The notes beneath the pieces were generated by a model. The model searched no databases. It was not told the origin of the DNA and saw only the letters and a list, made by a program, of their open reading frames with translations. The translations under genes and the position numbers were made by a program. Of a DNA stretch of 64,000 bases, positions 35,402-53,981 are shown one piece after another (position 1 is the stretch's first letter; every line of letters begins with the position of its first letter). This DNA is from Bacillota bacterium (GTDB taxonomy: Bacteria; Bacillota; Clostridia; Christensenellales; SZUA-584): positions 135,487 through 199,486 of the forward strand of contig JAEWRI010000022.1 in NCBI GenBank assembly GCA_023460085.1, written 5' to 3'.

Positions 35402-36256
35402 ATGGAAGTTATGGCATCAGGCGTCATATTCGATATCAAGGAGTTTTCGGTCAACGATGGCCCCGGTGTCCGGCAGACCGTTTTTTTCAAGGGCTGTCCG
35501 CTTCGGTGTGCCTGGTGCCACAACCCGGAAGGACTGGAGCAGGCCCCGCAATTGCTGGTTCGATACACCGAGTGCGTGCACTGCGGCATGTGCAAAAGCG
35601 TATGCACGCACGACCCATGCATCGCCTGCGGAGACTGCGTGTCCGTTTGCCCGTTGAGACTGCGCTCCGTTTGCGGCGAGACACTCTCCTCCCTCGAACT
35701 GGCGGCCCGGCTTGCCAAAGACGCTGAAATTTACGCCGGAATGCAGGGCGGTGTCACCTTCTCCGGCGGAGAGCCTTTGATGCAGCCTTTGTTTCTGTTG
35801 GAAACCCTGAAGCTGCTGCGGGGATATCACCGCGCGGTTGAAACGTGCGGTTACGCATCGGAAGAAATTTTTTCTGAAATCATGGAAGAAGCCGATCTCA
35901 TCATGCTGGACATCAAGCTGGCGGATCCGCTGCTTCACAAGCGGTATACCGGCGTCAGCAACCAAATGATACTGAACAATCTGGAACTGCTGAAAGCCGG
36001 CACAAAGGCATTTATCGTCCGCATCCCGCTTATCCCGGGTGTCAATGATGACCCCGGAAATCTGCGGGCTTGCGCGGCGCTGCTGAAAGGCGCTAAGTCG
36101 CTTCAGCGCGCAGAGCTTCTCCCCTACAACCGGCTTGCGGGTGCCAAATATGCCTTGCTGGGCCGGAAATATGCGCCGGCTTTTAATACGGAGCAATCAG
36201 TCAACGCCGACATCAACATATTCCATAAAAACGGTATAGAAATTATTTTATATTGA
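35402..36256 (+). CDS. Glycyl-radical enzyme activating protein (radical SAM)
   Basis: DGPGVRQTVFFKGCPLRCAWCHNPE (CxxxCxxC) plus a ferredoxin-like Cys cluster CVHCGMCKSVC...CIACGDCVSVCP. Confidence 0.85.
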   Translation: MEVMASGVIFDIKEFSVNDGPGVRQTVFFKGCPLRCAWCHNPEGLEQAPQLLVRYTECVHCGMCKSVCTHDPCIACGDCVSVCPLRLRSVCGETLSSLELAARLAKDAEIYAGMQGGVTFSGGEPLMQPLFLLETLKLLRGYHRAVETCGYASEEIFSEIMEEADLIMLDIKLADPLLHKRYTGVSNQMILNNLELLKAGTKAFIVRIPLIPGVNDDPGNLRACAALLKGAKSLQRAELLPYNRLAGAKYALLGRKYAPAFNTEQSVNADINIFHKNGIEIILY

Positions 36257-36352
36257 CAGTAAAATAATGATATGCCATGCTCGACAGCGTCAGTCATATT
36301 GGTATTCGGTTGGTGAAACGTTTTTTTTGCGTTTCCCGGAAAGCAGGCAGCA

Positions 36353-38422
36353 ATGAATGACAGAATTTCCGCAATGCGCGATTTCTTTATTGTGAATAAA
36401 GAGCACCATTCTTACAGACAGGAACGTACAGATCCCTTTTTTCTCGCCGAACAGGCGCAAATGGACAATCTCAGCGATTTGGAAAGAGCCGTTCTCCGTG
36501 TTCAGTATATGCTCCGCAAGGAAAAGCCCGTCGTATTTCCTTTTGAGAAAATTGCCCTGATGCGCACCGTACCCGAAACGCAGCATCTCTTTACGGACCA
36601 AGAAGAACAAACACTGCGTGCCCGGCACTGGCTTCACGAGTCGGGAGATTTAAACAACATCACGCCCGACTATATGCTGTTGATCGGTCTGGGATTCGAA
36701 GGGGCAAAGGCGGAAATCGAAAAATCGCGTCTGCGGTTTTCCGAAGATGCCCAAAAACAGCGGTTTCTCTCGGCGATGGAAGAAATGCTGAGCCTCATGC
36801 AGGAACTGGCAGATAAATATCAGGCGAAGGCGCAGGAAGTTGGAAACATAACCGTCGCAAACACGTTCTCGCGGATTCCCGCCCGCCCTGCGGAAACCCT
36901 GCTGGAAGCCATGCAGTTCTTCCGGCTGCTGCATTACGGCATGTGGTGCGCCAACAACTATCAGGTAACGATAGGCCGTGCAGATCAATACCTCTATCCG
37001 TATTACGTCAGCGATATGGCCAGCGGCAGGTACACAAGAGAAGAAATGCTTGAATTGGTTGAAGAGTTCTTTCTCTCCTTTAACCGCGACAGCGACCTGT
37101 ATGACGGTGTGCAGCAGGGCGATAACGGCCAGACGCTGGTTCTCGGCGGTTTAAATGAAGATGGCTCGGACAGCTTCAACGATCTCTCCGAGCTCATGCT
37201 TACAGCCAGTCTGGAACTGCGGCTGATAGACCCGAAGGTCAACCTGCGCGTCAGTTCCAAAACGCCGCTCAGCCGATTCATAGAAGCCACCAAAATGACA
37301 CGCCAGGGTCTTGGTTTTCCGCAATACATGAACGACGATATCAACATCCCTGCGTTGATTCGCTGGGGGTACGACCGGGCCGACGCCTGTAATTATTCCG
37401 TCGCAGCCTGCTGGGAACTCATCATCCCCGGGAAGGGCGCGGATATTCCGAACGCGGACGCGCTTTCCTTTGCGAAGGTGGTGCGCTCCGCGGCGCTGGA
37501 AAAGTTGGAATCGTGCGACACCTACGAAGAATTCGAAGCCGCCGTTCAAGCGGAACTGCGCGCCGAGACGGAGGATATGATTGAGAAAGCGTCGAAATTA
37601 TATATGATCCCCTCCCCTATGCTTTCGCTTACGATGACAGGCTGTATACAGAGCGCGACAGACGCGGTATACGCATGCCAATACAGAAATATCGGCTTTC
37701 ACGGCCCCGGTCTTTCCACTGCGGCCGACTCCATGGCAGCCATAAAACACTTCGTTTACGATACCCGTACCGTTTCCCCACATACGCTTGTACAAGCGCT
37801 TCTGCGCAATTATGAAGGGGATAAGGCACTAATGATCCGGTTGAGGTATGACGCCCCTAAAATGGGCAGCGACGACAGCAGCGTCGATTCCATCAGTGTC
37901 ATGCTTCTGGATACCTTCGCTGCCGCGTTGCAGGGAAAAACGAACGAGCGCGGCGGCATTTACCGGGCGGGGACGGCATCCGCAATGTATTACATGTGGT
38001 ACGGCAACAAACTGGGCGCCACGCCTGACGGAAGGCGAGAGGGCGAACCGCTCCCGTGCAACTATTCGCCCAGCCTTTTTGCCAAAACTCCCGGCCCTGT
38101 CTCCGTCATCAAATCGTTTACAAAGCAGCACCTGTTACAAGCCGCAAACGGCGGACCCCTCACCCTGGAGCTGCATGATACCGTTTTTCGCGCACCTGAC
38201 AGCCTTGAGAAGGTGGCAATGCTCGTAAAGCTGTTTATCGATCGCGGAGGCCATCAGCTGCAAATCAATGCTGTTAACCGCGAAGCGATGCTGGACGCGC
38301 AGAACAGCCCGGAAAGATATCGGAATATGATCGTGCGCGTGTGGGGCTGGAGCGGCTATTTTGTGGAGCTGGACAAAGAATATCAGGATCAGATCATTCA
38401 GCGAACGGAATACGCGATTTAA
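36353..38422 (+). CDS. Short glycyl radical enzyme (PFL2/glycerol-dehydratase-like eliminase class), substrate unknown
   Basis: C-terminal glycyl radical motif RVWGWSGYF (Gly codon 38345-38347). Cys loop AACWE (Cys353 codon 37409-37411, with Glu at +2). Only 689 aa. Confidence 0.8.
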   Translation: MNDRISAMRDFFIVNKEHHSYRQERTDPFFLAEQAQMDNLSDLERAVLRVQYMLRKEKPVVFPFEKIALMRTVPETQHLFTDQEEQTLRARHWLHESGDLNNITPDYMLLIGLGFEGAKAEIEKSRLRFSEDAQKQRFLSAMEEMLSLMQELADKYQAKAQEVGNITVANTFSRIPARPAETLLEAMQFFRLLHYGMWCANNYQVTIGRADQYLYPYYVSDMASGRYTREEMLELVEEFFLSFNRDSDLYDGVQQGDNGQTLVLGGLNEDGSDSFNDLSELMLTASLELRLIDPKVNLRVSSKTPLSRFIEATKMTRQGLGFPQYMNDDINIPALIRWGYDRADACNYSVAACWELIIPGKGADIPNADALSFAKVVRSAALEKLESCDTYEEFEAAVQAELRAETEDMIEKASKLYMIPSPMLSLTMTGCIQSATDAVYACQYRNIGFHGPGLSTAADSMAAIKHFVYDTRTVSPHTLVQALLRNYEGDKALMIRLRYDAPKMGSDDSSVDSISVMLLDTFAAALQGKTNERGGIYRAGTASAMYYMWYGNKLGATPDGRREGEPLPCNYSPSLFAKTPGPVSVIKSFTKQHLLQAANGGPLTLELHDTVFRAPDSLEKVAMLVKLFIDRGGHQLQINAVNREAMLDAQNSPERYRNMIVRVWGWSGYFVELDKEYQDQIIQRTEYAI

Positions 38423-38459
38423 CTAACGTACAGCTGCTTAACCGGACTGAACGGAGCAA

Positions 38460-40793
38460 ATGATGAATAAACTGTTGAGCCATGGAAAAAGCGTCATTCT
38501 GGCATGGATTTTATCCTATATGCTGATCATTGTACTTGCCGTTTTGGGCAACCTTTTTACCACAAACCGTTTCGCCAACTCTTTCAAGGAACAGATATTT
38601 AAGGATACTGCCGAGGCATTATATCATGCCAGCGCAAACGCGGACGACCGCATGCGCGATATTAAGAAAACCGCCCACCTGATTGGGGCCAACTCAAATC
38701 TGAATCGATTGCTGAGCGACAATAACGGAAGTACTACTGCCATCGATTACAACAGCTTTATAACCGAGTTACGCAGCTATCAGGTGGCCAACAGTTTTAT
38801 CAAGTATATATACGTATTTCCCGACAACACAGATAATGTTATATCTACTACTTTCGTTCGGGATTCCGCTTATCGTGAACAACTGCTTTCGCAATATTCC
38901 CTTGCGGACGGTGAGGATATTTCTGACGTCATTCGCGCGCCCCATTACGGTGATTTTCTGTCCATGATTGAATATGAACGGCCCTCCTCCTCCTCTTCTG
39001 TTGTAACCTATCTGCAGTCTCTGCCCGCGAACACGACCAAGCGCGTAGATGGTACGCTGATGCTGGTGATGGACAGCTCCTCCCTGCTTGCGTCCCTCAG
39101 TGCTGACATCTGGTACGATGGCAGCCATATCATAGTGATGGATAGCGGCAACAACATTATAGCCGCCAATTCCGCAGTCGACCTTGACGGAGTAGTAAGC
39201 TACGATATGCTGGAAGGCAGCCCGGACAGATTCGATATTAAGTTGAATGGGGAAGAACACACTGTGCTTCAAGCGACATCAGAAGTGAACACATGGAAAT
39301 ATATTGTCATTCTCCCTACCGAAGTAATGATACAAGATGTCAGGAACGTTCAGCGGTTTTTCCTTGAAAGCCTCATTATTACACTTGCGCTTGGATTCGT
39401 CGCCTCCATTTTCCTTGCGCGCAGAAATTATCTGCCGCTGAAAATACTGATGAAATCCGTGGAGAGCGACGCGGGTATTGCGTTTGGCGGCGGTGTAAAC
39501 GAGTTTCAATATTTGCAAACCGCCGTTACCTCCGCCCTCGCGGAAAAGGAAGCGCAAAAAAGCGCATATAAAAATCAGCTCATACGGCTGCGCTCCGGAT
39601 ACTTTGCAGGCATTATGAAGAATGAATTGGATGCCGAGCTTACAATGGACGATATGCTGAAAGCTTGCGACATCAATTTCCGTTTTGAAAAATTCGCCCT
39701 GCTGCTTATTAGTATTAAAGGGGTATATGGGAAACCTCCGGGAAGCCGCAGAGATCCCAGAGAGAAGGAGAGCAAATCCATTGTCGCCAGTGTTTTCGAG
39801 GAGTTCATCAACAAGAACCATGATGGGTTTGTAATAAACGTTGATGAAATGCAGGTGGCCGTATGGAACTTTCCCAATAACGCGACTAACCGCGAAATAC
39901 GGGATGATATACTGCATGTCACAGAGGAATGCCTTGAATTCCTGCAGAACACCTGTGATACCACAGTGACGGTAACCGCCAGTTCCCCCTTCCTGTCGCT
40001 CACGGATTTGAGCGGCGCGTACAAGGAAGTCTTCACTGGTATGGAGTACTGTGTGATTATGGGCTTAATCGGTCTGCATTTCAGCGAGGATATCCGCTAC
40101 GGACAGCTTAATACCGAGACCTACCATTACTACTATCCTCTGCAGCTTGAGATACAGATGACGAACTTGATTAAGTGCGGAGATTACGCGGGAGCGAAGC
40201 ACATACTGGACGAATTCTTCCGTGTTAATTTTGAAGAGCTCTCATTGCCGCAGCCCATTATGAAGTGCTTCATGTTCAATTTGACAAGCACGATGTTGAA
40301 GACCGTCTATGAGCTTGATATCATGGAAGAAGAATCGGAAATCTCGAATTCCATCGATCTGATGCTTTCCTGCCATTCTGTAACGGAAATATATGAAGAA
40401 GCGAAGCATGTGATGGCAGCGCTCTGCAATCATAAGGGACAGGGCTGCTCCTCGCACAGCTTCCTTTCGGAGACTCAGATATTTGTACAGAAGCATTATT
40501 CAGACGTCAATCTGAGCATTACAATGATCGCCGGGCATTTTAATCTGACGCCTTCTTACCTGTCCAAGAAATTCAAGAGTCTGACGGGTGGCGGTCTGCC
40601 GGAATATATCAATCAGGTGCGCCTGGATAAAGCCAAGTCCATGCTCATCCATACAAAATGCGGGGTTGGCGCTATCGCCACGGCATGCGGTTTTATCAAC
40701 AGCAATACCTTTATCCGTGTTTTCAAAAAATTCGAGGGGATTACGCCGCGCACCTACCGCGATACCGGAACTGCTGAACATCTGCATGACTGA
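38460..40793 (+). CDS. Membrane-anchored AraC-family regulator (YesS-like architecture)
   Basis: N-terminal TM (VILAWILSYMLIIVLAVLGNLF), a large extracytoplasmic region, a second TM, and a C-terminal AraC HTH (LSITMIAGHFNLTPSYLSKKFK...FINSNTFIRVFKKFEGITP). Confidence 0.8.
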   Translation: MMNKLLSHGKSVILAWILSYMLIIVLAVLGNLFTTNRFANSFKEQIFKDTAEALYHASANADDRMRDIKKTAHLIGANSNLNRLLSDNNGSTTAIDYNSFITELRSYQVANSFIKYIYVFPDNTDNVISTTFVRDSAYREQLLSQYSLADGEDISDVIRAPHYGDFLSMIEYERPSSSSSVVTYLQSLPANTTKRVDGTLMLVMDSSSLLASLSADIWYDGSHIIVMDSGNNIIAANSAVDLDGVVSYDMLEGSPDRFDIKLNGEEHTVLQATSEVNTWKYIVILPTEVMIQDVRNVQRFFLESLIITLALGFVASIFLARRNYLPLKILMKSVESDAGIAFGGGVNEFQYLQTAVTSALAEKEAQKSAYKNQLIRLRSGYFAGIMKNELDAELTMDDMLKACDINFRFEKFALLLISIKGVYGKPPGSRRDPREKESKSIVASVFEEFINKNHDGFVINVDEMQVAVWNFPNNATNREIRDDILHVTEECLEFLQNTCDTTVTVTASSPFLSLTDLSGAYKEVFTGMEYCVIMGLIGLHFSEDIRYGQLNTETYHYYYPLQLEIQMTNLIKCGDYAGAKHILDEFFRVNFEELSLPQPIMKCFMFNLTSTMLKTVYELDIMEEESEISNSIDLMLSCHSVTEIYEEAKHVMAALCNHKGQGCSSHSFLSETQIFVQKHYSDVNLSITMIAGHFNLTPSYLSKKFKSLTGGGLPEYINQVRLDKAKSMLIHTKCGVGAIATACGFINSNTFIRVFKKFEGITPRTYRDTGTAEHLHD

Positions 40794-40975: not shown

Positions 40976-42529
40976 ATGAGTATATTAAACGTCGAACATG
41001 TAACCCATGGCTTTGGAGCCAGGTGCATTTTAGAAGATGCATCTTTCCGCCTTTTAAAGGGCGAACATGTTGGACTGGTCGGCGCCAATGGCGAAGGAAA
41101 ATCCACATTTTTAAATATCATTACCGGCAGGCTTATGCCAGACCAAGGCACGGTTGAGTGGTGTAATCGTGTGACGACTGGTTACCTTGATCAGTACACG
41201 ACCCTGACCAAGGGAAAGACAATCCGTGAGGTCCTGCGTGAAGCCTTTCAATATATGGTCGACCTTGAAACCGAAATGAATGCGATGTACGACCGTATGG
41301 CATCCTGCAGCGAAGATGAGATGACCTTGCTCTTAGAAGAAGCCGGTGACATACAACACAACCTTGAGCATAATGGTTACTACACCATTGACTTTAAAAT
41401 CGAGGAGATTGCGAACGGGCTTGGTCTTTGTGATATCGGGTTAGATCGCGATGTTACAGACCTTAGCGGAGGTCAACGTGTAAAAGTATTACTTACCAAG
41501 CTGCTGCTTCAAAACCCGATGATACTCATTTTGGACGAGCCGACGAATTTTTTAGATGAAAACCACATTGTATGGTTGAAAAACTATTTGCAGGAGTACG
41601 AAAATGCCTTCATAGTGGTATCGCATGATGTATCTTTTTTAAATGATGTCGTAAATGTTATATATCACGTCGAAAACGCCCAGTTTACACGATATACAGG
41701 AAATTATGAGCAGTTTCAAGAAATGTACAACCTGAAAAAGCTTCAGTTGGAAAAAGCGTATGAACGCCAGCAAAAAGAGATTGGCCAATTGGAAGATTTC
41801 ATAGCACGCAACAAGGCGCGCGTGGCTACTTCCAATATGGCCAAAAGCCGTCAGAAGAAGCTGGACAAGATGGAAATCATCGAGCGCGTAAAAGAAAAAA
41901 TAAAGCCAACCTTCAAGTTTTCCGAAGCGAGAACACCGGGAAAAATGATAGTGAGCGCGCAGGATTTGGTTTTGGGTTATGGTGAGCCTTTGACAAAACC
42001 CATCAACATCATGCTGGAGAGGAGCCAGAAGGTGGCTATCAAAGGCGTTAACGGGCTCGGCAAATCCACATTGTTAAAAACGTTACTGGGCATGATACCT
42101 CCGGTTTCGGGCGAATGTGAGCTTGACCCATATGTACATCCAGGTTATTTCGAACAAGAAGAGGTGTTAAGCGATAGGACTGCGCTCGATGAAATATGGG
42201 CTGAATTCCCGAGTTTGACAAACGCAGAGGTTCGGGCCGCGCTTGCCAGGTGCGGGCTGACCACAAATCATATCACCAGTCAGATGAAAGTACTGTCGGG
42301 GGGAGAAAATGCAAAGGTCCGCATTTGCAAGTTGATGCTTAAGGATGTGAACTTCTTGGTGCTGGACGAACCTACAAATCATCTTGATACTGACGCAAAG
42401 GAAGCGCTTCAAAAAGCCATTATCGAATTTAAAGGAACTGTTTTGCTGGTTTGTCATGAACCAGAGTTTTATGAAAGCTGGGTAACCCATGTCTGGAATG
42501 TGGAGAATTGGACAAATAAGATAGTATAA
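40976..42529 (+). CDS. ABC-F family ATPase (ribosome-associated; translation factor or ARE-type not distinguishable here)
   Basis: Two ABC cassettes (GANGEGKST / LSGGQRVK; GVNGLGKST / LSGGENAK) joined by a basic linker (FIARNKARVATSNMAKSRQKKLDKME). No TM domains. ATG 40976 follows a GGAGGA SD. Lower GC than its neighbours (25/60 in 40981-41040). Confidence 0.85.
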   Translation: MSILNVEHVTHGFGARCILEDASFRLLKGEHVGLVGANGEGKSTFLNIITGRLMPDQGTVEWCNRVTTGYLDQYTTLTKGKTIREVLREAFQYMVDLETEMNAMYDRMASCSEDEMTLLLEEAGDIQHNLEHNGYYTIDFKIEEIANGLGLCDIGLDRDVTDLSGGQRVKVLLTKLLLQNPMILILDEPTNFLDENHIVWLKNYLQEYENAFIVVSHDVSFLNDVVNVIYHVENAQFTRYTGNYEQFQEMYNLKKLQLEKAYERQQKEIGQLEDFIARNKARVATSNMAKSRQKKLDKMEIIERVKEKIKPTFKFSEARTPGKMIVSAQDLVLGYGEPLTKPINIMLERSQKVAIKGVNGLGKSTLLKTLLGMIPPVSGECELDPYVHPGYFEQEEVLSDRTALDEIWAEFPSLTNAEVRAALARCGLTTNHITSQMKVLSGGENAKVRICKLMLKDVNFLVLDEPTNHLDTDAKEALQKAIIEFKGTVLLVCHEPEFYESWVTHVWNVENWTNKIV

Positions 42530-42759
42530 GCTTCAGATGTATGCGCACCATACTTCCTGATATAGAAACCCAGACTTCGCCTGCTTACCTCCGAACATCA
42601 TCCCGATGTGTGAATCTACCGCGGCAATGGTACCCCATGGGCAGGTTTGCCCTGCGCAGTTTACCCAAAGCATGAAAGCCGCTTCGAGGACTATCTATCT
42701 GCAAGATCGAAGCTGAATCTCGAGGCCTATATGATAAATAGATTGGACTTCGTTTGTTA

Positions 42760-42800
42760 ATAAAGAAAAAAGCTTATCATTTCTCAACAATAAGCTTTGT
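42760..42800 (-). terminator. Intrinsic terminator downstream of the tRNA 3' fragment
   Basis: Minus strand reads aaagcttat-loop-ataagcttt (42790-42798 / 42769-42777) followed by TTTTTCTTTATT. Confidence 0.55.
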
Positions 42801-42804
42801 TATT

Positions 42805-42836
42805 TGGTACCTCCTAGGGGAATCGAACCACTAGTT
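42805..42836 (-). other. tRNA 3'-end fragment (T-arm + acceptor 3' strand + CCA); candidate prophage attachment-site core
   Basis: Minus strand reads GGTTCGATTCCCCTAGGAGGTACCA, ending at 42805. The 76 nt upstream contain no complementary 5' acceptor strand, so the gene is incomplete. It sits at the GC-rich/AT-rich junction next to the lysis end of the prophage. Confidence 0.55.
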
Positions 42837-42904
42837 ATGCCTTTAATATTCAACAATACTGGCTTTTTGGCATATTTCGTGGCATATTTTATTCTATTAA
42901 ATTA

Positions 42905-43198
42905 TTATTTATCTGTGTTCTTAGCTATCTGCCCTATTCCTAAAAATAATAGCCCAAACAAATAACTGAATAAACCTAACACCGCAATGCTAAATAATAG
43001 TGCACTAATTGGTAGGTTGTCAATTATATTTTCTGCAAAAGTGCCATCACCCCAACTGCTTGAACTAATAGCAACACTAATTATATCAAGTACAAAAACG
43101 ATAATTGCAATTAGCATTACTCTTAATCCTAACTTGTTAAAAAAGCCGCCTTTCCTTAATAATAAGTCACTATTCTTTTCTGCCGCTTTAGTACCCAT
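42905..43198 (-). CDS. Small membrane protein at prophage end (2 predicted TM)
   Basis: 97 aa. Hydrophobic stretches VMLIAIIVFVLDIISVAI and LLFSIAVLGLFSYLFGLLFLGIG. Prophage-like base composition. Confidence 0.55.
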   Translation of the reverse strand: MGTKAAEKNSDLLLRKGGFFNKLGLRVMLIAIIVFVLDIISVAISSSSWGDGTFAENIIDNLPISALLFSIAVLGLFSYLFGLLFLGIGQIAKNTDK

Positions 43199-43531: not shown

Positions 43532-43810
43532 TTATGCTTTAATCTTACTAATTACTTCTGATACAGCAGAACTACCAGACATTAATACAAAGCCTGTAGT
43601 AGCCATTCCAAGCGGCGTTACAGCTTGATATAGGCCAATCGCTGATACTAAATCTAATCCAAAGCCAAAAGCCAGCACAAAGGCGAATACAGCCGCTAAA
43701 CCAATAGTGATATACTTACCAAAGCTTAAATCCACCCAAAGCGGCTTAAATCTATCAATAACATACCACATAACCATTGATAACCCAATGATTAAAGTTA
43801 ACATTTCCAT
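43532..43810 (-). CDS. Putative holin
   Basis: Small protein with 3 hydrophobic segments, immediately downstream of the endolysin. ATG 43810 follows a GGGAGGG SD (the ORF-track start 43828 lies within the SD). Confidence 0.7.
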   Translation of the reverse strand: MEMLTLIIGLSMVMWYVIDRFKPLWVDLSFGKYITIGLAAVFAFVLAFGFGLDLVSAIGLYQAVTPLGMATTGFVLMSGSSAVSEVISKIKA

Positions 43811-43815
43811 TCCTT

Positions 43816-44574
43816 TTAACCCTCCCATTTATAACCCATAGTGGTTATAGTTTGCTTTCCTGCTTTGCCATCAACCTTAATCTTCTTAGCTTTCTGAAAA
43901 GCTAAAACTCCTGCTTCTGTCTTACTGCCAAAAATACCATCTTCAGCACCGCAACTATACCCAAGCTTATTTAGGGTTTTTTGAAGCAATCTAATATCTT
44001 CACCTTCCATCTGTGGTGAAAGCTTCTTCAATACTCGATTAAAGATAACTGCGGCAGTAGCTTCAATTTCATCTTTAAAGTAAGTTGGTCTGCCGTAAGT
44101 GTTCCAGCCGCCTTGACTTAAAGGACGTTTTACAACACCATAGGCACTACCCCTAGCTTCAATTACATTTAAAGCATCGTCAACCACATAACCAATATGA
44201 TAGGCTTTACCCTTCTTAGTGCCGGTCTTATAGGTTTTAAATACCCAATCACCTTTCTTTAGTTCTGCCTTAGAAAGAATTGTGCATTTACCTTTAAGGC
44301 CGTTTGCGTTCATATCAACCTTGATAATACCTAGCTTCTGCAAGCTGTAGATACCCAAGCCGCTACAATCAAAGGCTTTTAACATCTCACCAAAACCAGC
44401 TTCAACTTGTTTCTTCCAATAAGCTACAGCACTGTTGCCGGTTGAAGTGGTCTTAGCACATTTCTTAATCCAAGCTTCTGTAATAGTTGGTTTTGTTTGG
44501 CCTTGTGCACCCCAAACATAGATAGAATGGTTTTTTACTTCCAGTTCTAATAGTTCAATAAATTCTTTTAACAT
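43816..44574 (-). CDS. Endolysin: NlpC/P60-type cysteine peptidase + PG_binding_1 domain
   Basis: AFDCSGLGIYSL catalytic Cys motif and a His in GKAYHIGYVV. C-terminal LQKTLNKLGYSCGAEDGIFGSKTEAGVLAFQKA peptidoglycan-binding repeat. Confidence 0.85.
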   Translation of the reverse strand: MLKEFIELLELEVKNHSIYVWGAQGQTKPTITEAWIKKCAKTTSTGNSAVAYWKKQVEAGFGEMLKAFDCSGLGIYSLQKLGIIKVDMNANGLKGKCTILSKAELKKGDWVFKTYKTGTKKGKAYHIGYVVDDALNVIEARGSAYGVVKRPLSQGGWNTYGRPTYFKDEIEATAAVIFNRVLKKLSPQMEGEDIRLLQKTLNKLGYSCGAEDGIFGSKTEAGVLAFQKAKKIKVDGKAGKQTITTMGYKWEG

Positions 44575-44585
44575 CTCCTTCCCTC

Positions 44586-44903
44586 CTATTGTTGTCGCAA
44601 TACTGCGGCACGTTCATCATAAAGCTTCTGTAATTCCTCACATTGCTTTCTATACTCTGTAAAGGCCTGTTTCAACTCTCCATTCATTTGTTCACCATTA
44701 ACCTTGCGGCAAAGTAAATCATCATAAATCAATTCGTATCGTTCGCATGAAGCTTTTTGAACATATATATCTGCATCAATTTTCTTTATTTGTGCATTAT
44801 TCTTTTCTGCCTTGCTTAATCTGCTTTTTAGATAGATAGTTACAATTCCGGTAGAACCAAACAAAGCACCTACAAAAGCTATAATTATTGCTGTCCAATC
44901 CAT
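44586..44903 (-). CDS. N-terminally membrane-anchored coiled-coil protein of the lysis cassette (XhlA-like position)
   Basis: TM segment AIIIAFVGALFGSTGIVTIYL followed by a charged helical region. It lies directly upstream of the endolysin. Confidence 0.5.
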   Translation of the reverse strand: MDWTAIIIAFVGALFGSTGIVTIYLKSRLSKAEKNNAQIKKIDADIYVQKASCERYELIYDDLLCRKVNGEQMNGELKQAFTEYRKQCEELQKLYDERAAVLRQQ

Positions 44904-45719: not shown

Positions 45720-46637
45720 TCAACTATACTTCAAATAAATATCACCCGAACTACCGCCTGAAGGTGAAGCTGTACCAGAAGTAATTTGTTTTTGTTTTGC
45801 GTCAAGTGTAGCTTGTAAGTTCGTAACCTCTGAAATAGCGTGTGTGTGGCTAAGTGCCGCATAAATACTATGTGTATGGCTGGTTGCGGCCTTGCCATCC
45901 AATGTAGTTTGTAGGCTGGTTACATTAGCTATACTGTGAGTATGTGAAGCTGCGGCCTTACCATCTAAAGCTGTCTGAAGGCCTGTTACATCACTGATTG
46001 AATGAGTGTGTGAAGAACTTGCTTTGCCATCCAAAGCCGCCTGTAAATCGGTTATATTGGCTATAACGTGAGTGTGAGTAGTCAAAGAATACTGTGCGTG
46101 AGTATGTCCAATATCCGATTTATTAGCCAGTGTGCTAACAATAGTGTTTAGCTGGTTCTGTATCTCTGCGGCTGAATAAGTTAAAGTTCTTTCATCAGTT
46201 AAGGTTACTGTACTACCGTTTGTAATTAAAGCACGATATAGCGGCAGTTGATAAATTAAGTCGTTCTGTGTTAAGTCTGGTGCTGTTGCTGTGCTTGCGG
46301 CAGTACCCTTAACAGTAAGTAATTCCATCTTTCTATTTGCGGTATCAAGCTGAATTATTACTCTATCAATTCTTTGTAGTGAAGCTGTTTCTGCGTCTAA
46401 GGTAATAGTTGAACTATCTTCATTAAAACCGAATCTTCCATTAATAAAGCAGTTACCATTTCCCACTGTCAGTTCTAAGCCATTTGCAGTAATAGCAAAA
46501 CTATCACCAACATTTTGACTAACTCCATTACCGGCTAACCCCTTAACCAGTTCTGCAAATTCAGCACTAGAGTATTGGTATATATCTGAATCGCCTTCAG
46601 CAAAATCAAACATTCCATAAAAATCTAAGTTTGCCAT
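45720..46637 (-). CDS. Tail fibre protein with HxH-containing 22-aa repeats
   Basis: 305 aa. Repeats SHTHSI(S/A)xVTxLQTxLDGKAxx. The position and composition are typical of phage fibres. Confidence 0.7.
   Translation of the reverse strand: MANLDFYGMFDFAEGDSDIYQYSSAEFAELVKGLAGNGVSQNVGDSFAITANGLELTVGNGNCFINGRFGFNEDSSTITLDAETASLQRIDRVIIQLDTANRKMELLTVKGTAASTATAPDLTQNDLIYQLPLYRALITNGSTVTLTDERTLTYSAAEIQNQLNTIVSTLANKSDIGHTHAQYSLTTHTHVIANITDLQAALDGKASSSHTHSISDVTGLQTALDGKAAASHTHSIANVTSLQTTLDGKAATSHTHSIYAALSHTHAISEVTNLQATLDAKQKQITSGTASPSGGSSGDIYLKYS
45786..46109 (-). repeat. 66-bp (22-aa) in-frame tandem repeats, 3 full + partial copies
   Basis: THTHVIANITDLQAALDGKASS / SHTHSISDVTGLQTALDGKAAA / SHTHSIANVTSLQTTLDGKAAT / SHTHSIYAAL / SHTHAISEVTNLQATLDAKQKQ. 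Confidence 0.8.
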
Positions 46638-46652
46638 GTAGTTTACCTCCTA

Positions 46653-48536
46653 TCATGCTGTTCTTTTCCACATATACACTGTGATATATGGCTGTAAATT
46701 ATTGTGTGCTTGTCCTCCACCTGTGTTTTGGTTAGTTGCGGTTGTAGCGTTATTTGTTGCTGTTGTGCTTTGGTTAGTAGCTGTGGTTGAACTACATGAA
46801 GGTGTTGCACTTCCAGAAGAACCAGAATAGGCAGGAATATCAACAGTGTGTGTATGTGCACCATTTTCTTTAGCCATAAAAGATTGGTCATAGATTGTGT
46901 TGCTTGAATAACCTGTTGAATAACCAGATACAGCAGTACCACCACCATTAGAAGTTGATAGTGATACAAACTTACCATTTGATGGATACCAAAGCTGGTG
47001 AGTATGTGCACCATTACTTGCCGCTGTTGCGTCTGAATGGTCATGGTTTATAGTGTGAGAATGTTCACCTATTGAGTGTGAATGGCTATCCTGTGTATGT
47101 GTATGGCTGTTCTGTGAGTGATTGTGGCTATCTTGAATATGGGTATGGGAAGGCATTTCTTCAATACTTAATGTATGTGTTTTTTCACCGCCAGCCTGTT
47201 CAACCGCATCAAAATCTTCATCTTCTTCATCAACACCAATTAAGGTTCTTCCTTTAGCAAAGGTTTCCCAAGTGCCGCCAAATAACGTGGCTGGTGAAGC
47301 TGAATTTACTGAAGTGTAGATAGCACCAATTGGATATATCATTAGTAATATATCTGAAATTGTTTTACTTTCTAAAGTACTGGCATCAATGTTACCACTG
47401 CCACTACCAGTAACGCCTTCCACCTTTAATAGTGATTGCGTGCTACTACTACTGCGGCGTAAGGCATCACCTAAAGTTTGCTTATCATAGCCAAAGACAA
47501 CATCTATTCCATATCCATTACTATCACAAACTTCAGTTATTTCAGTAAGTCTAAAATCAATAGTGCTTTCAATTACACTATCTTCAATAGTTCCAATATC
47601 ACCTAAATCAAAATCTACTCTATATCTTTCAATTAATAGTTGATTAAAGGTAATTTGATAATTTGCGGTATCACCATATTCAGCTAGTGCTTCCTGTCCT
47701 CTTTGTGGTAGTAAGCTATCATCCTCAATATCTCTGGCATCAACGAATAATTCATTTCTTCCTAATCCGCTAGTAGCATCATTAATTTTTACAACACTTC
47801 TATCAACGCCTTCACCCTGTCCAGCAATAATAGCTGTTGTCGGCACACCTTTATTGTTTTCTAATACTGTGCTTGCAAGGCTGTCATTTTCATAAGAAAG
47901 AATAAGGCGGCTGTTGGTTGATTGGTTAATACTTCGGTCTAATCCATTGTAGATATGGAATACAATTTCAGCGTATTGTTCATTACCTTCAATAGGCTGT
48001 ATATCCGCATACCAGCCAATATTATTGGTTGTAGCTATGGTTGTAACATCATCGTAGGCATTGCCGAATCTGCCGCTATAATCAATTGTGCGGCCTTCTA
48101 TCACATAATAATCAGCAATTGTTATATGTGGTATTTGTCGTTGTGCCGCATCACAATTAATCAGTTGCTTATCAATAATATTAGCTATTACTGTTTCTGG
48201 TGCTGTTGATGAATACGATTGGTAAGCCGCATCTGTAGGCGGCATTACAATTCTTTGATTTAATATACCTTTTAGTTCTGTACCAGAATAGGTTATAGTA
48301 TTTTCATTACCAATACTTGTTACCACTTTTTTAACTATTCCGGCTACTCCATCACCATTAGAAATGAATTCAAAGCCGCTAATCAGCTTTGCATTATCAC
48401 TTAAAGCATTTAAAACTAATTGCCAATCACCAACATCACTATATTTTCTGGTAAAAGTAAAGCTGGTGTAGTCATCAACTACACCAACCAACTTTAAACC
48501 ATCTTCAGTTAATTTATAACATTTTACTTCTGCCAT
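46653..48536 (-). CDS. Tail-tip/baseplate receptor-binding protein (Gp37-like N-terminus, tail-collar-like C-terminal region, His-rich tract)
   Basis: 627 aa, downstream of Dit. YPIGAIYTS...FGGTWETFAKGRTLIG and GGEKTHTLSIEEMPSHTH resemble phage tail-collar/MdpB-type motifs. HxH cluster HTHIQDSHNHSQNSHTHTQDSHSHSIGEHSHTINHDHS. Confidence 0.7.
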   Translation of the reverse strand: MAEVKCYKLTEDGLKLVGVVDDYTSFTFTRKYSDVGDWQLVLNALSDNAKLISGFEFISNGDGVAGIVKKVVTSIGNENTITYSGTELKGILNQRIVMPPTDAAYQSYSSTAPETVIANIIDKQLINCDAAQRQIPHITIADYYVIEGRTIDYSGRFGNAYDDVTTIATTNNIGWYADIQPIEGNEQYAEIVFHIYNGLDRSINQSTNSRLILSYENDSLASTVLENNKGVPTTAIIAGQGEGVDRSVVKINDATSGLGRNELFVDARDIEDDSLLPQRGQEALAEYGDTANYQITFNQLLIERYRVDFDLGDIGTIEDSVIESTIDFRLTEITEVCDSNGYGIDVVFGYDKQTLGDALRRSSSSTQSLLKVEGVTGSGSGNIDASTLESKTISDILLMIYPIGAIYTSVNSASPATLFGGTWETFAKGRTLIGVDEEDEDFDAVEQAGGEKTHTLSIEEMPSHTHIQDSHNHSQNSHTHTQDSHSHSIGEHSHTINHDHSDATAASNGAHTHQLWYPSNGKFVSLSTSNGGGTAVSGYSTGYSSNTIYDQSFMAKENGAHTHTVDIPAYSGSSGSATPSCSSTTATNQSTTATNNATTATNQNTGGGQAHNNLQPYITVYMWKRTA

Positions 48537-48539
48537 CCG

Positions 48540-49394
48540 TTACACCCCAACATAGTAATTACGCCAGTAAATAAAAACTTCTGGTGTGCCAGCGTCACCG
48601 CTAAAACTCAATTGATTAGTTCCTTTAGGTAAAGAAAAGAAGGTTGAATTTAGTGAAATAAGGTGAAAAGCACTTTCTATACTGCCATCAAGATTTACTT
48701 TGTTTACTGTCTTTTTACCGTATTCAGTCTTAATGATAAGGCTTTCCCCATCATCAATACTGGTTTCTACTTTTATGAATTCCCCTGTATTAATTAGTTC
48801 TAAATTTGGATTTACAGAAGTGTTTTTGAATTCTGCACGAATTGGTGAAGGAACATCCCCAACTATTTCAATAGTTGCTACATCACCTTTCTGTGCAAAA
48901 TTCACGCCTTCTTCATCAAATTCAAGCGGATAAACTAAACCGCCTGTAAAGTCACCAAGCTTAACCGCACTTTCCGCATTGTCAAACCAAAGAGGATTAT
49001 TAGCAGTAAGTTCAACATTGTAATATTGAATCGTGCCACGTTTTGCGGCTGGTGTTGGTGCGGCAGTTACCACTACCTTAATTGACTTGCTTATAAAATC
49101 ATTAATATAGGTAAGAGTGCCTTCACCCAAAAGAGGATTAAATATACTGGCTAAATTACGTCTTGCAGTATACATATCTAATGCGTTTTCAGTAATGTAG
49201 CCAAAGGATATATTGATAATTCTTATACCCAAGTTTGAAGAAATGAAGGTTGAACCATTCTGCTTATAGCCACTAGTAGTTATTGGTATAATCTCACTAG
49301 CTGTTAAACCGTCATACTTACTTAGAATATAACTACCATCATAATCAATGGTAGTAGTGTTTCCTAAAGCATTTTTAAATATAAATCTCTCCAT
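48540..49394 (-). CDS. Distal tail protein (Dit)
   Basis: 284 aa immediately after the tape measure gene (1-nt overlap). N-terminus typical of the siphovirus tail-component family. Confidence 0.7.
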   Translation of the reverse strand: MERFIFKNALGNTTTIDYDGSYILSKYDGLTASEIIPITTSGYKQNGSTFISSNLGIRIINISFGYITENALDMYTARRNLASIFNPLLGEGTLTYINDFISKSIKVVVTAAPTPAAKRGTIQYYNVELTANNPLWFDNAESAVKLGDFTGGLVYPLEFDEEGVNFAQKGDVATIEIVGDVPSPIRAEFKNTSVNPNLELINTGEFIKVETSIDDGESLIIKTEYGKKTVNKVNLDGSIESAFHLISLNSTFFSLPKGTNQLSFSGDAGTPEVFIYWRNYYVGV

Positions 49395-51322
49395 TATGCG
49401 AAAGCCTCCGCTAACTCTTTACTTAAACGCCTTACTTGAATTTGTTGTTCATATGGTGTTAAGGCTTTTGCGGAAAGAGTGATATTTTGAGTTATTGAAT
49501 TGTTTTGGTTGCCAGAATAAGCAGGATTGCTACTTTGTGTCGCTTTCGCTAATTGAGAACTAGTAGAATTACTTGAACCATATAGTGAAGCATCAATACT
49601 AGGCATATCTAAGCTAGGATTAAAAGCGTTTTCTACTTCTCTAGCTATATCACCCATTGCATCAATAGCTAAATCTGCTGTGTCGGTTAGGCCATTGGCT
49701 AATCCTTGTGTCATGTTTTCGCCAAAAGAAGCAAACACTGTTGAAGGTGAGTGAATTCCAAAGAATTCTTTAATCTTATCAACTAAGTTATTGCACCAGC
49801 CTTTAACCTTGTTCCATAACCAAGTTGCGGCATCACTAATACCCTGCCAGATACCTTTAATTAAGTTCAAGCCTGTTTCAGCCATCTTAGAAAAGAATGA
49901 ACCGAAAGCATTAACAATACCTGTTATAATTTGCGGTATTGCTTTTACTATCTCAATTATGATTGTTGGAAGGTTTTCTACTAAAGCAATAAATAGCTGA
50001 ATACCTGCATCAATCAACATTGGAATTAAAGTATCAATCTTATCAAGAATTGAAGTAATTATTTTTGGTATGGCCTTAACTATTGATGATATAATTGCCG
50101 GCAAATTTTCAACCAATGCGGTTATTAACTGAATTCCAGCATCAATAATTAATGGAATAGCATCAATCAATGTTGTTATAATTGAATCAATGATTTCTGG
50201 TATTGCATCAATAATACTAGGAATTGCTTCCAATAACCCTTTTACCAAAGCTAATATAATCTGAATAGCCGCATCAATAATTAAAGGTAAATTATCAATG
50301 ATTATTTGCACCATTGTTAAAAGAACATTAACTATTGTTGGTATTAGTTCTGGTAAGGCTTCAGCTATACCATTAATGATTGCTAGAAGAATTTGAATAC
50401 CAGCTTCTAATATGGTTGGTAACATATTGATAATTTCATTTACCAACTGCAATATAATGGTTATCGCTGTTTTAATTAAAGTGGGTAAGTTATCAACAAT
50501 CCCTTTAATTAAAGTAGGAATAATTGTTTGTGCTACTTGAAGTATCTTAGGTATTGATTGTAAAAGCATATTTACAAAGTTATTAATACCTGTACTTAGC
50601 TTTTCCTCAGCACCATCAGCACCAGTTATAATGCCTGTTAACCCTTCTAAAATATTACCCATTGAAGGTAATAAGGCACTCATTACTTCATTCTGAAAGC
50701 CAGTAAAAGAAGCTTTCAGCTTTTCTAAGCTATCACCAAAGGATTCAGCACCGGCAACAGCATCATTTGACATAACAGCACCAATATCTACAGCTTCCTG
50801 TTTTAGTGCGTCTATGCCGGTTACACCCTCATTTAATAAAGGTGTTAAGTCATATGCGGCCTTGCCAAACAGTTCTTGTGCGGCGGCGGCACGTTCACTT
50901 TCATCAGTGATACCAGCTATTTGTGTTAAGGCTTGTTCTAAGTTTAAATCTGAACCGCTTTTCTGAAGGTTCTTAGCCGCTTGTTCTAGTGTTTCCATAT
51001 CAACACCAGATTGACTTGCCGCATAACCTAGTTCTTGAACTGATTCAGCACTAATGCCCATTCTTTGTGAAGCATCATATATTTCACCTGCGGCATCTGC
51101 TGTTTGAGTTGCCATTTTCCAAACACCGGCAACTACTGTTGTAGTAAAGCCAACAATGGCAGTAGTAGCTGTTGCTATACCTTTTCCAATACCTTTTACA
51201 GTATCACCAATACCACTTCCAGCCTTCTTAACCTGTTCTTCTGTTTCTCCTATTTGTTTATTTGCTTCTGTATTATCTACTCCAATTGCGATTTTCAAAG
51301 TGCCTAAATCAAGGCTTGCCAT
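49394..51322 (-). CDS. Tape measure protein
   Basis: 642 aa, helical, with internally repeated IPxIIDAGIQLxxALVENLPxII segments. It follows the G/GT chaperone genes. GAGGTG SD. Confidence 0.85.
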   Translation of the reverse strand: MASLDLGTLKIAIGVDNTEANKQIGETEEQVKKAGSGIGDTVKGIGKGIATATTAIVGFTTTVVAGVWKMATQTADAAGEIYDASQRMGISAESVQELGYAASQSGVDMETLEQAAKNLQKSGSDLNLEQALTQIAGITDESERAAAAQELFGKAAYDLTPLLNEGVTGIDALKQEAVDIGAVMSNDAVAGAESFGDSLEKLKASFTGFQNEVMSALLPSMGNILEGLTGIITGADGAEEKLSTGINNFVNMLLQSIPKILQVAQTIIPTLIKGIVDNLPTLIKTAITIILQLVNEIINMLPTILEAGIQILLAIINGIAEALPELIPTIVNVLLTMVQIIIDNLPLIIDAAIQIILALVKGLLEAIPSIIDAIPEIIDSIITTLIDAIPLIIDAGIQLITALVENLPAIISSIVKAIPKIITSILDKIDTLIPMLIDAGIQLFIALVENLPTIIIEIVKAIPQIITGIVNAFGSFFSKMAETGLNLIKGIWQGISDAATWLWNKVKGWCNNLVDKIKEFFGIHSPSTVFASFGENMTQGLANGLTDTADLAIDAMGDIAREVENAFNPSLDMPSIDASLYGSSNSTSSQLAKATQSSNPAYSGNQNNSITQNITLSAKALTPYEQQIQVRRLSKELAEAFA

Positions 51323-51366
51323 ATTAATTCACCTCGCAAATAAACAAGGAAAAATAAAAGGCGTTT

Positions 51367-51950
51367 CTATTTTGTTTTCTTGCGAAACGCCTTTCTATCT
51401 ATACTTGTTGTGTTAAGTCGTTTGCATTTTTCTAAATAATCACGCCCTTCTTGTGTTTCATTCAATTCTTCTATAATTGCGTTTTTATTCATTGATAGAA
51501 AAACATCATAATCAAGTTGTAAAACTTCGTGATAATTTAGGTTGGAATATGCCATTACTCGCCTTAAAGCTGGCATTATTTCTGCTTCACCTTCGCTATC
51601 ATCATCATCAAAGGCAGGTAGTGAAGGCGGTTTTAGTTTGGGTTGTTCTGAAGTTCATTAATGAATTCACCGTAAGATTTAACAATTGCTTGAAGCATAA
51701 ATAAATCCATTTTCTTAACCTGTTCTAATGTGAATTCTATAGTGTTTGTGTTATTGTTGAGAATTTTTAAAACTATAGAAGCTAATCCTTCCATAATCTC
51801 GATAGGATTACCCTTATCTAAATTTTCCATCAACATCATATCAATTACTAACTGTTGTGAAGGCTTTTTAATATTAATTTTTGTGCCATCCTCCATAGTA
51901 ATATCAAAAGTCTTTTTATTAAAAACTGATAAATCCAGTGCATTAGCCAT
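51367..51950 (-). CDS. Tail assembly chaperone frameshift product (gpGT-like, -1 PRF)
   Basis: A -1 slip at C_CCA_AAC joins ...LQNNP to KLKPPSLPAFDDDDSEGEAEIMPALRRVMAYSN..., which is the frame of ORF 51367..51576. Verified by hand translation. Confidence 0.65.
51633..51950 (-). CDS. Tail assembly chaperone (gpG-like)
   Basis: 105 aa between the major tail and tape measure genes. It ends 1 nt after a CCCAAAC slippery heptamer. Confidence 0.75.
   Translation of the reverse strand: MANALDLSVFNKKTFDITMEDGTKINIKKPSQQLVIDMMLMENLDKGNPIEIMEGLASIVLKILNNNTNTIEFTLEQVKKMDLFMLQAIVKSYGEFINELQNNPN
51636..51642 (-). promoter_or_regulatory. -1 programmed ribosomal frameshift slippery heptamer CCCAAAC
   Basis: X_XXY_YYZ in the correct phase (AAC CCA AAC TAA), directly before the gpG stop codon. 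Confidence 0.65.
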
Positions 51951-51964
51951 TATAAAATCCTCCT

Positions 51965-51998
51965 AAAAGTAAGAGGAAGGCTTGCCGCCTTCCTCTAT
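51965..51998 (-). terminator. Intrinsic (probably leaky) terminator after the major tail gene
   Basis: Minus strand reads gaggaaggc-ggcaa-gccttcctc followed by TTACTTTT. Confidence 0.5.
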
Positions 51999-52023
51999 TA
52001 GCTTATTTTTATTGTTGTGTTAA

Positions 52024-52566
52024 TTAAGCAACACTGTATTCTTCAGTAAGAATAACTTGTGTGCCATCTCCATCATGTGCAATAGCCTTGAATTCAGCAT
52101 CAATAACAGTTTCCTTGTCTGGTGCGAAAGCTAGACTAAATCCATTAGAAGCAGTTCCTACTAAGGTAACTCTGAACTTATTACCATCGGCTTCAGTATG
52201 CACAAAATGAATTACAAATTCACTCATTTCACGTGCACCCTTGCCGCCAATTGTAACAGTGCGTTTACCGTTTACAGTATCATCTTCATAAGAACAACTT
52301 GCAATTAGATTAGCAAGTGTTTCTAAGTTCCAAGTAAGTACACCGCTTTTAAAGTTGATTTCCTCACTTATTACAAAGCGTTTTAGCACTTCACCAGTAT
52401 CACTTGATACTTCATATTCATTAGGCTTATATTCTAGTGAAGCACCGCCTTGAATGTGTCCAACTTTATTAGCCGCTAGTTCAATAACATCATCGGCTGG
52501 TAAAGTTCCACTGAAAGCTACAATATATAAATCACCAGAACCTAAAATAACATTTTCTGTTGCCAT
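52024..52566 (-). CDS. Major tail protein
   Basis: 180 aa. MATENVILGSGDLYIV N-terminus typical of siphovirus major tail proteins. Its position is upstream of the chaperones. Confidence 0.8.
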   Translation of the reverse strand: MATENVILGSGDLYIVAFSGTLPADDVIELAANKVGHIQGGASLEYKPNEYEVSSDTGEVLKRFVISEEINFKSGVLTWNLETLANLIASCSYEDDTVNGKRTVTIGGKGAREMSEFVIHFVHTEADGNKFRVTLVGTASNGFSLAFAPDKETVIDAEFKAIAHDGDGTQVILTEEYSVA

Positions 52567-52569
52567 AGT

Positions 52570-52935
52570 TTATTCACTCCTTGATAGTATTTCAAAGTAT
52601 AGTAGTCTGTGGTGTTTCTTTCTTTCACTATCGTAAAGAGTGCCACCACCGTTTTGAACAACCTTTAATACATTGGTTGTTAGTGGAGTATCAGCCAAAG
52701 TTAGAATTAGCTGTTTTACTCGTTTTTCTATATCAATGGCTTTAGCCATCGTATTTGTTATAACGTGAATCTGAATTCTGTTTTTCTGTGTAATCTTATC
52801 ATCTGAAAGCGGCACTATCTCATATATCATGCACTCGCCGGTATAGCTGGTTTCCATAGGGTAAATGTTGGCGGCAGTGCCTATATAGCTGATTAGTTGG
52901 CTGTCATCCTTTAAAATGTTTAATACCTCAACCAT
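52570..52935 (-). CDS. Tail completion/terminator protein (DUF3168-like)
   Basis: 121 aa. Called by synteny between the gp10-like and major tail genes. Confidence 0.55.
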   Translation of the reverse strand: MVEVLNILKDDSQLISYIGTAANIYPMETSYTGECMIYEIVPLSDDKITQKNRIQIHVITNTMAKAIDIEKRVKQLILTLADTPLTTNVLKVVQNGGGTLYDSERKKHHRLLYFEILSRSE

Positions 52936-53968: not shown

Positions 53969-53981
53969 TTTATCCCCCTAT

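Follow-up and report, generated by a model that had tools for sequence, protein, structure and literature searches.

The locus described here raises the question of what lies behind an abrupt fall in G+C content that coincides with the 3' part of a tRNA gene in an uncultured Clostridia genome. An earlier note on this DNA put the fall at about 30 points. The window, that is, the whole stretch of 64,000 nucleotides that was analysed, is free of Ns, and its G+C content is 54.3% over positions 1-40,975 and 35.9% over positions 42,830-64,000, a difference of 18.4 points. The 30-point figure is too large because it rests on two hand-picked 60-mers, the counts of which were themselves exact (40/60 G+C at 12001-12060 and 18/60 at 50401-50460). 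A 200-base G+C profile places the switch at 42.7-42.85 kb, near the tRNA 3' fragment as had been proposed. The difference in GC3 is larger: the 30 host ORFs have a mean of 0.65 and a minimum of 0.495, and the 16 phage ORFs a mean of 0.27 and a maximum of 0.356, with no overlap between the two sets.

Host DNA up to the junction

The following features make up the junction and the sequence on both of its sides:

40,976-42,529, plus strand: ABC-F type ATPase, last host gene before the junction (Pfam: two ABC_tran and ABC_tran_Xtn)
42,530-42,758, no strand: host intergenic stretch (alignment to the DNA downstream of ABC-F in a related genome, L007)
42,759-42,798, minus strand: host intrinsic terminator of the tRNA-Glu gene, with a stem of 13 bp and a U-run behind it (fold and alignment)
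42,804-42,829, minus strand: integrase-distal att core, 26 nt (GGTTCGATTCCCCTAGGAGGTACCAA), with an exact second copy at the far end
42,830-42,900, minus strand: phage arm of the att site, with two AATATGCCA copies (42,868-42,876 and 42,880-42,888)
42,804-64,000, minus strand: the part of the prophage inside the window (whole element 22,444 bp, ending at window-equivalent position 65,273)

The ABC-F protein, for which the public gene call of 517 aa starts 20 codons after the start of a 537-aa ORF, was found by a genome scan to be 91-93% identical in six species-level MAGs named 'Bacillota bacterium OH_*' (L004-L009) and about 75% identical in the next relatives, which are Ruminiclostridium and Acetivibrio-like genomes. 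Upstream of the gene are encoded an AraC-type regulator as well as a glycyl-radical enzyme and its activase. The G+C content declines gradually between 38 and 42.5 kb, and a chimeric join inside the ABC-F gene was considered here and rejected: the gene has 44.5% G+C and its orthologues are equally low (43-47%), so that this composition is native and not the sign of a join. Further downstream, G+C is about 51% over positions 42,530-42,720, and positions 42,530-42,730 align with the DNA that follows ABC-F in L007. As the terminator also aligns with a hairpin conserved downstream of ABC-F in L005, L006, L007 and L009, host DNA reaches the core itself. The host is a GC-richer uncultured Clostridia bacterium.

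On the minus strand, positions 42,805-42,829 read GGTTCGATTCCCCTAGGAGGTACCA, a 25-mer that corresponds to the 3' end of tRNA-Glu(CTC), and this is where the earlier note had recognised the T-arm, acceptor strand and CCA of a tRNA. The 26-nt core runs from T-stem position 52 of tRNA-Glu(CTC) through CCA plus one base, and the intact tRNA-Glu(CTC) copies in L008, L009 and L102, the last being a second assembly of this DNA, have the identical 3' end. The intact gene is itself identical at 75/75 positions among these three, L008 and L009 having ABC-F proteins 91-92% identical to the one described here. The 25-mer is rare, being present in 2 of 2.9 million IMG/VR contigs. ARAGORN found no complete tRNA in the 64-kb window, so the fragment indeed stands without its 5' half, and the DNA upstream of it (ACTAGT...) diverges from that of the tRNA (AACAGG...); having no full cloverleaf, the fragment does not qualify as a functional tRNA. 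An Rfam scan of the window returned only a malK-I RNA, far from the junction. The end of a tmRNA was also considered as the identity of the fragment and was ruled out by the 75/75 match to tRNA-Glu(CTC).

The terminator that had been ascribed to the fragment is likewise there. A simple terminator scan missed its hairpin because the stem contains too few G-C pairs, and folding revealed it directly 3' of the fragment (78-nt MFE -18.6 kcal/mol, z = -2.55). It is the host's own terminator, now stranded behind a displaced 3' end. On the other side of the core, the two AATATGCCA copies of the phage arm are matched by three more between the far core and the integrase, and the motif occurs 4 times in L102 where 0.27 copies are expected. 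It is also found beside the core in two IMG/VR phages (L084 and L085), where the core forms part of attP, and in an element remnant in L008, and from their sequence and arrangement these repeats could be arm-type binding sites of the integrase.

The far end of the element

The window ends inside the integrase gene:

63,982-64,000, minus strand: 3' end of the tyrosine integrase gene (continues to window-equivalent 65,007 in L102)

The remainder was read from L102 (ENA ERZ27269013 k141_27856; 201,036 bp), which probably derives from the same sample, is 100% identical to the window over 50,876-64,000 and extends to window-equivalent 65,536. The integrase has 341 aa, with matches to PF00589 and to phrog_1 (8.9e-57). 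An intact tRNA-Glu(CTC), which folds as a cloverleaf, was found by ARAGORN at window-equivalent 65,249-65,323 (14,374-14,448 of L102), spaced 240 bp from the integrase. The order past the integrase is three candidate arm-type sites, the phage terminator and the intact tRNA; this 15-bp terminator, which follows the tRNA in its direction of transcription, is supplied by the phage. The second 26-nt core lies at window-equivalent 65,248-65,273 and is exact, with a spacing of 22,444 bp between the copies and 35.8% G+C in the DNA between them. The 26-nt repeat recurs exactly once, at the end of the intact tRNA-Glu beside the integrase, and this pair is not due to chance.

The second att copy, the intact tRNA and the integrase had all been predicted to lie beyond 64 kb, and they were found between window-equivalent positions 63,982 and 65,323. 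The earlier note had also named a far end lacking a matching tRNA-derived repeat as the outcome that would count against its reading, and at this end the repeat is present without a mismatch. Since the integrase and the intact tRNA-Glu(CTC) are at the opposite end, the junction in the window is the integrase-distal one, as had been claimed, and the att pair identifies the fragment as the displaced tRNA 3' end of a phage attachment site. One detail has to be corrected: an A1-U72 pair had been deduced by assuming a Watson-Crick partner for U72, and the intact gene reads GCCTCCT...AGGAGGT-A-CCA, that is, it starts with G, has a G1·U72 wobble, and carries A as the discriminator base. The G1·U72 pair is kept in all three genomes, and the variant gene of a related host (that of prophage L122, below) has it as well, a small oddity.

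The DNA beyond the intact tRNA in L102 amounts to only 213 bp, which are intergenic and have 37.6% G+C, and a comparison of this flank with L008 gave no clear similarity. With so short a flank, the host identity on the integrase side rests on the tRNA itself. All assemblies end at most about 300 bp past the intact tRNA; one of them, ENA ERZ28599896 scaffold_28 (200,864 bp), in which exact protein matches place the window at positions 135,415-199,414, ends about 1.45 kb past the window, and a Logan contig ends, on the other side, inside the ABC-F gene.

Gene content of the prophage

Between the two cores lie the following genes, in order from the junction towards the integrase:

42,905-43,198, minus strand: small 97-aa protein beside att (translation; two hydrophobic stretches read as membrane-spanning)
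43,532-44,903, minus strand: lysis cassette (Pfam, translations, position)
43,532-43,828, minus strand: 98-aa hydrophobic holin-like protein (translation)
43,816-44,574, minus strand: endolysin, NlpC/P60 and PG_binding_1 (Pfam)
44,586-44,903, minus strand: 105-aa protein with a hydrophobic N-terminal stretch (translation)
45,720-51,322, minus strand: tail tip and tail length module (Pfam: SPP1_Dit, Sipho_tail, Sipho_Gp37, Gp10_C, PTR)
45,720-46,637, minus strand: PTR-repeat fibre (Pfam)
46,653-48,536, minus strand: Tal/Gp37-like protein (Pfam)
48,540-49,394, minus strand: Dit (Pfam)
49,394-51,322, minus strand: tape-measure candidate (position only)
54,030-59,251, minus strand: head and packaging module (Pfam: Terminase_3/3C, SPP1_portal, Phage_Mu_F, DUF4355)
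54,030-54,839, minus strand: major capsid candidate (position)
54,854-55,414, minus strand: scaffold protein (DUF4355)
55,543-56,358, minus strand: MuF-like protein (Phage_Mu_F, below Pfam's cut-off)
56,309-57,643, minus strand: SPP1-type portal (SPP1_portal)
57,654-58,886, minus strand: large terminase (Terminase_3/3C)
58,901-59,251, minus strand: small terminase candidate, HTH protein
62,028-62,819, minus strand: candidate replication initiator or DnaD-like loader, 263 aa (phrog_270, phrog_186; weak HTH_36)

The lysis genes that had been said to adjoin the junction are therefore in place, with the endolysin as their clearest member, and the cassette has a weak match to phrog_20258. Reading of the translations together with gene position suggests holin and membrane roles for its hydrophobic proteins. 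The 97-aa protein, which has no Pfam or PHROG match, may be the product of a moron or exclusion gene. The siphovirus set, which also includes head-tail connectors and lies entirely on the minus strand, is complete, its capsid, major tail and tape-measure genes being assigned by position only. Judged from its genes, the element has the composition of the siphovirus morphotype, with large terminase, portal, head-assembly, tape-measure, Dit and Tal genes and no sheath gene.

A megablast search of positions 42,500-64,000 against 50,697 phage records gave no match, and the prophage is a new, uncultured and compact siphovirus that has no DNA-level counterpart among isolated phages. A tblastx comparison of the phage with 80 host-relative loci returned nothing, and the host relatives carry different cargo at the tRNA-Glu site. 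In addition, a metagenome scan with the endolysin returned only relatives 47-51% identical, mostly on short contigs, and an IMG/VR scan with the integrase returned only relatives at most 31% identical; the pattern method used there missed L084 and L085. The closest isolates are the Clostridium phages phi8074-B1 and the CS series of Clostridium sporogenes, which share the SPP1-type portal and the siphovirus layout. They differ from the prophage in that portal identity is only 40-42%, their genomes measure 47-48 kb as compared with 22.4 kb here, their hosts are low in G+C and similarity at the DNA level is absent. The low-GC hosts of these phages fit a low-GC ancestry of the prophage.

Integration into the 3' end of tRNA-Glu(CTC)

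Taken together, these data indicate, with a probability that we put at about 0.88, that the junction marks one of the two ends of a temperate siphovirus of 22.4 kb, which a tyrosine integrase inserted at the 3' end of tRNA-Glu(CTC). One end of the element has a tyrosine recombinase gene, the core repeats correspond to the 3' end of tRNA-Glu(CTC), and the two junctions differ in that one has the intact tRNA and the other no more than a 3' fragment. In the mechanism that we propose, the phage attP would duplicate the final ~26 nt of the tRNA and add a terminator of its own behind them, and recombination within the shared core would join the 5' part of the host tRNA to the phage copy. The product would be the intact tRNA beside the integrase, 1.25 kb past the end of the window, and the original 3' end of the host gene, together with its native terminator, would be pushed to the lysis-side end of the element, giving the fragment at 42,804-42,829. 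The composition changes sharply because host DNA (54% G+C) meets phage DNA (36%) exactly at the core. From the state of its sequence, the prophage may still be able to excise. A search for a contig of this host strain with the empty site found none.

This mode of integration is well known from temperate phages with a tyrosine integrase, among them P22 (thrW), P4 (leuX), HP1 (tRNA-Leu), mycobacteriophage L5 (tRNA-Gly) and Lactobacillus phage mv4 (tRNA-Ser). As in these systems, the core is the 3' end of a tRNA, the intact tRNA is at one junction and the fragment at the other, the integrase is beside att, and repeated candidate arm-type motifs are present on both phage arms. What differs is the target, tRNA-Glu(CTC), and the uncultured Clostridia lineage in which it is used, the integrase here having a role predicted from its sequence. 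The mechanism is thus an ordinary one, tRNA 3'-end integration by a tyrosine integrase being textbook knowledge.

Age of the composition gap

The size of the gap in composition is less ordinary. G+C contents of phages and their hosts are correlated, with R = 0.90 and a slope of 0.88, and phages tend to be the lower of the two (PMC5989581). Against this published correlation, the prophage-host gap described here is an outlier in the usual direction. It could be accounted for by a single, very recent jump from a low-GC member of the Firmicutes that shares the 3' end of tRNA-Glu, the composition of the phage having had no time to drift towards that of the new host, and the earlier note had taken such an acquisition as one of its two default readings. 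In favour of it, the GC3 values given above (0.27 for the phage and 0.65 for the host, without overlap) carry no sign of amelioration, the nearest isolated phages infect low-GC Firmicutes (Clostridium, Streptococcus and Staphylococcus; portal identity at most 42%), and two IMG/VR phages share the core at 30-37% G+C. The latter (UViG_3300044606_000055, L084, and UViG_3300042276_000370, L085) carry the identical 25-nt core as attP and have related integrases, which are 71% (over the first 133 aa, those available) and 52% (full length) identical, respectively; their cores are likewise flanked by (A/T)ATGCCA repeats. They differ from the prophage in that phage DNA lies to either side of the core, which forms an attP site, in their other genes, a RuvC-like gene adjoining att, and, in L085, in the inverted orientation of the core with respect to the integrase.

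However, this tRNA is repeatedly occupied, in relatives of the host, by AT-rich elements whose integrases belong to this family. A sibling prophage, L122 (ENA ERZ27268878 k141_4656, a contig of 24.8 kb with 35.1% G+C), has an integrase 81% identical to the one described here and 78% nucleotide identity over 7.5 kb, yet, in a relative from the same host clade, it has kept a G+C content of 35%. It shares the gene order from the integrase to the head genes and the position beside tRNA-Glu(CTC), and differs in part of its early genes and in the 5' part of its host tRNA, a variant that points to a different strain or species as host. The promoter region of this tRNA-Glu(CTC) resembles those of L008 and L009. 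Furthermore, two IMG/VR relatives, L086 (92% nucleotide identity) and L092 (78%), have 38% G+C. In L008, a decayed core (GGTTCGATTCCCATATAAGGTACCC) and the AATATGCCA arm motif directly follow ABC-F, and after the core come patches of 27-29% G+C that extend to an intact tRNA-Glu at a distance of 6.3 kb. This element has no integrase and is an old remnant, and its degraded state indicates that AT-rich elements are long-standing users of the site.

Other elements extend this pattern. In L117, an integrase 71% identical to that of the prophage has tRNA-Glu(CTC) and, as in L009, the host gene DUF4153 as its neighbours, and the element that carries it encodes FtsK and Viral_Rep and has 29-45% G+C, as against about 50% for the host. 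In L119, a distant integrase is located at tRNA-Leu(GAG), the element having 32-37% G+C and the host 53-61%. Related integrases are carried by elements of 29-38% G+C in L117 and L119, in hosts of 50-60%, and still more distant ones are located at tRNA-Leu(CAG) (L121) and at tmRNA (L123 and L124). In L006, a tRNA-Glu 3' fragment right after ABC-F is followed by GC-rich DNA, which indicates that a different element was inserted there. The tRNA-Glu(CTC) downstream of ABC-F is an insertion hotspot in this clade. Lastly, the core of the phage matches the tRNA-Glu(CTC) of this clade exactly. Because related AT-rich elements recur across this divergence, the low G+C content appears to be a long-standing trait of the element group and not the trace of a fresh change of host, and we regard a one-off recent jump as unlikely.

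Integrity of the prophage and of the assembly

Integration of a temperate siphovirus also has to be weighed against the view that the element is a defective remnant or a phage-derived island that no longer excises or forms particles, 22.4 kb being small by the standards of temperate siphoviruses. The early region covers only about 5.5 kb, the Pfam and PHROG matches include no recognisable repressor, excisionase or replication helicase, and the closest isolates are, as mentioned, about twice as large. On the other hand, the ORFs follow one another closely, none of the genes from the integrase to the lysis cassette is visibly broken, and both att cores are perfect. The compact layout is shared by L122 on its 24.8-kb contig, and its conservation suggests a functional small genome. 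These observations make a defective element improbable.

The other default reading of the earlier note, an assembly or scaffolding chimera in which a low-GC phage or genome fragment was wrongly joined to a high-GC contig, draws on the facts that the low-GC part forms the last 22.7 kb of a 200-kb scaffold and that a separate Logan contig covers almost only this part, ending 410 bp left of the core, but it is so poorly compatible with the exact pairing of the att sites, with the presence of an integrase and an intact tRNA at the other end of the element, with host-homologous intergenic DNA and a host terminator that reach the core (in the Logan contig too), and with insertions at this very site in related MAGs of other assemblies that we consider it negligible. 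Additionally, scaffold_28, k141_27856 and Logan SRR13358366_5395 are identical base for base across the junction, a comparison that tests the assembler rather than the biology, as the three assemblies probably come from the same sample. The 26-nt repeat is shorter than the k-mers used (141 according to the contig name k141, and 31 for Logan), and k-mers containing both flanks should therefore exist in the reads. The edge at the drop in G+C is a true prophage boundary, and the gap, unusually large as it is, is a recurrent one.

Implications

The locus provides a clean and fully delimited prophage, integrated at tRNA-Glu(CTC), with a composition and codon use far from those of its host. Composition-based tools would mis-bin such a prophage or flag it as contamination, and host prediction based on composition would err. 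We further propose, tentatively and at slightly under even odds, that this integrase family marks a set of AT-rich mobile elements (27-38% G+C) living stably in uncultured Clostridia of 45-60% G+C. If so, the set would include this phage, its sibling L122, the decayed remnant and the element with FtsK and Rep genes, and the elements would have stayed about 18 points (G+C) and about 38 points (GC3) below their hosts across at least 22% nucleotide divergence. Such a stable difference in composition would rank among the larger ones between temperate phages and their hosts, and it would point to selection or mutation bias specific to the elements, and not to recent transfer.

The host flank of the prophage

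The G+C content of the ABC-F gene that precedes the prophage (43-47%) was about 10 points below that of its neighbours (48-55%), and this was found in every related genome analyzed (the MAGs L004-L009). The low G+C of this gene is a dip specific to the gene itself and does not mark a transfer boundary. Between its stop codon and the terminator lies a non-coding stretch conserved with one of these genomes, L007 (11,570-11,700), partially present in L009 and missing or far shorter in L005 and L006. No Rfam family matched this stretch at the gathering threshold; a small RNA is one possible reading, a relic another.

Features of the host flank
Window 40976-42529: ABC-F gene, with orthologues in L004-L009
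Window 42530-42730: non-coding stretch of ~200 nt, ~51% G+C

Elsewhere in the window, a malK-I RNA (Rfam RF03069) was found at 28646-28829 on the plus strand, upstream of sugar-transport genes, as a full-length match scoring 113.5 bits (gathering score, 60.3). Additionally, a glycyl-radical enzyme with PFL-like and Gly_radical domains (36,353-38,422), its radical-SAM activase (35,402-36,256) and a 776-aa AraC-type regulator form a cluster at 35402-40793 that adjoins sugar ABC-transporter genes.

Prophage size and contig ends

The entire temperate siphovirus, from window 42804 to window-equivalent 65273 (the same numbering extended along the longer ENA assembly of the locus, L102), occupies just 22.4 kb and has an early region of ~5.5 kb, whereas its closest isolated phages are 47-48 kb long. 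The sibling prophage L122, on a contig of 24.8 kb, has the same compact layout.

The Logan contig (SRR13358366_5395) has one end at window 42394, within the ABC-F gene and 410 bp left of the att core, and the other inside the intact tRNA at window-equivalent about 65296, and both ENA contigs (scaffold_28 and k141_27856) stop at most about 215 bp past this tRNA (window-equivalent about 65450 and 65536). A repeat, a tRNA common to related strains and strain variation are possible causes of these ends.

The target tRNA and related elements

The tRNA-Glu(CTC) of the host clade, identical at 75/75 positions among three of the four genes, has an acceptor stem topped by a G1·U72 wobble and A73 as discriminator. 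Negativicutes tRNA-Glu(TTC) genes from this data set carry G1-C72 instead.

tRNA-Glu(CTC) genes and elements at this tRNA
L102 14374-14448; L008 17915-17989; L009 16058-16132; L122 66-140: tRNA-Glu(CTC) genes
L008 11585-17990: region with a decayed att core and arm motif (candidate integrase arm-type site) directly after ABC-F
L117 9706-17853: element with an integrase beside tRNA-Glu(CTC)

In L008, the att core is followed by an ORC/CDC6-like ATPase gene (27-28% G+C), DUF188, a second, Uup-like ABC-F, a 230-aa ORF (29% G+C) and the intact tRNA-Glu. No integrase is present in this region, which seems to be what is left of a related element, intermixed with host genes. The L117 element is not a phage; it carries FtsK/SpoIIIE and Viral_Rep genes and is likely an integrative mobilisable element. 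Since its integrase is 71% identical to that of the window's phage, the two elements have their integration module in common.

Orientation and targets of the integrase family

The attP of the IMG/VR phage L085 (3140-3440) has its tRNA-like core facing away from the integrase gene, the reverse of the arrangement in both the window's phage and a second IMG/VR phage, L084. Once L085 is integrated, its integrase would therefore adjoin the displaced fragment and not the intact tRNA. Furthermore, four integrases 54-61% identical to that of the window's phage (L119, L121, L123 and L124) adjoin tRNA-Leu(GAG), tRNA-Leu(CAG) or tmRNA. The integrase family has switched targets among the 3' ends of structured RNAs.
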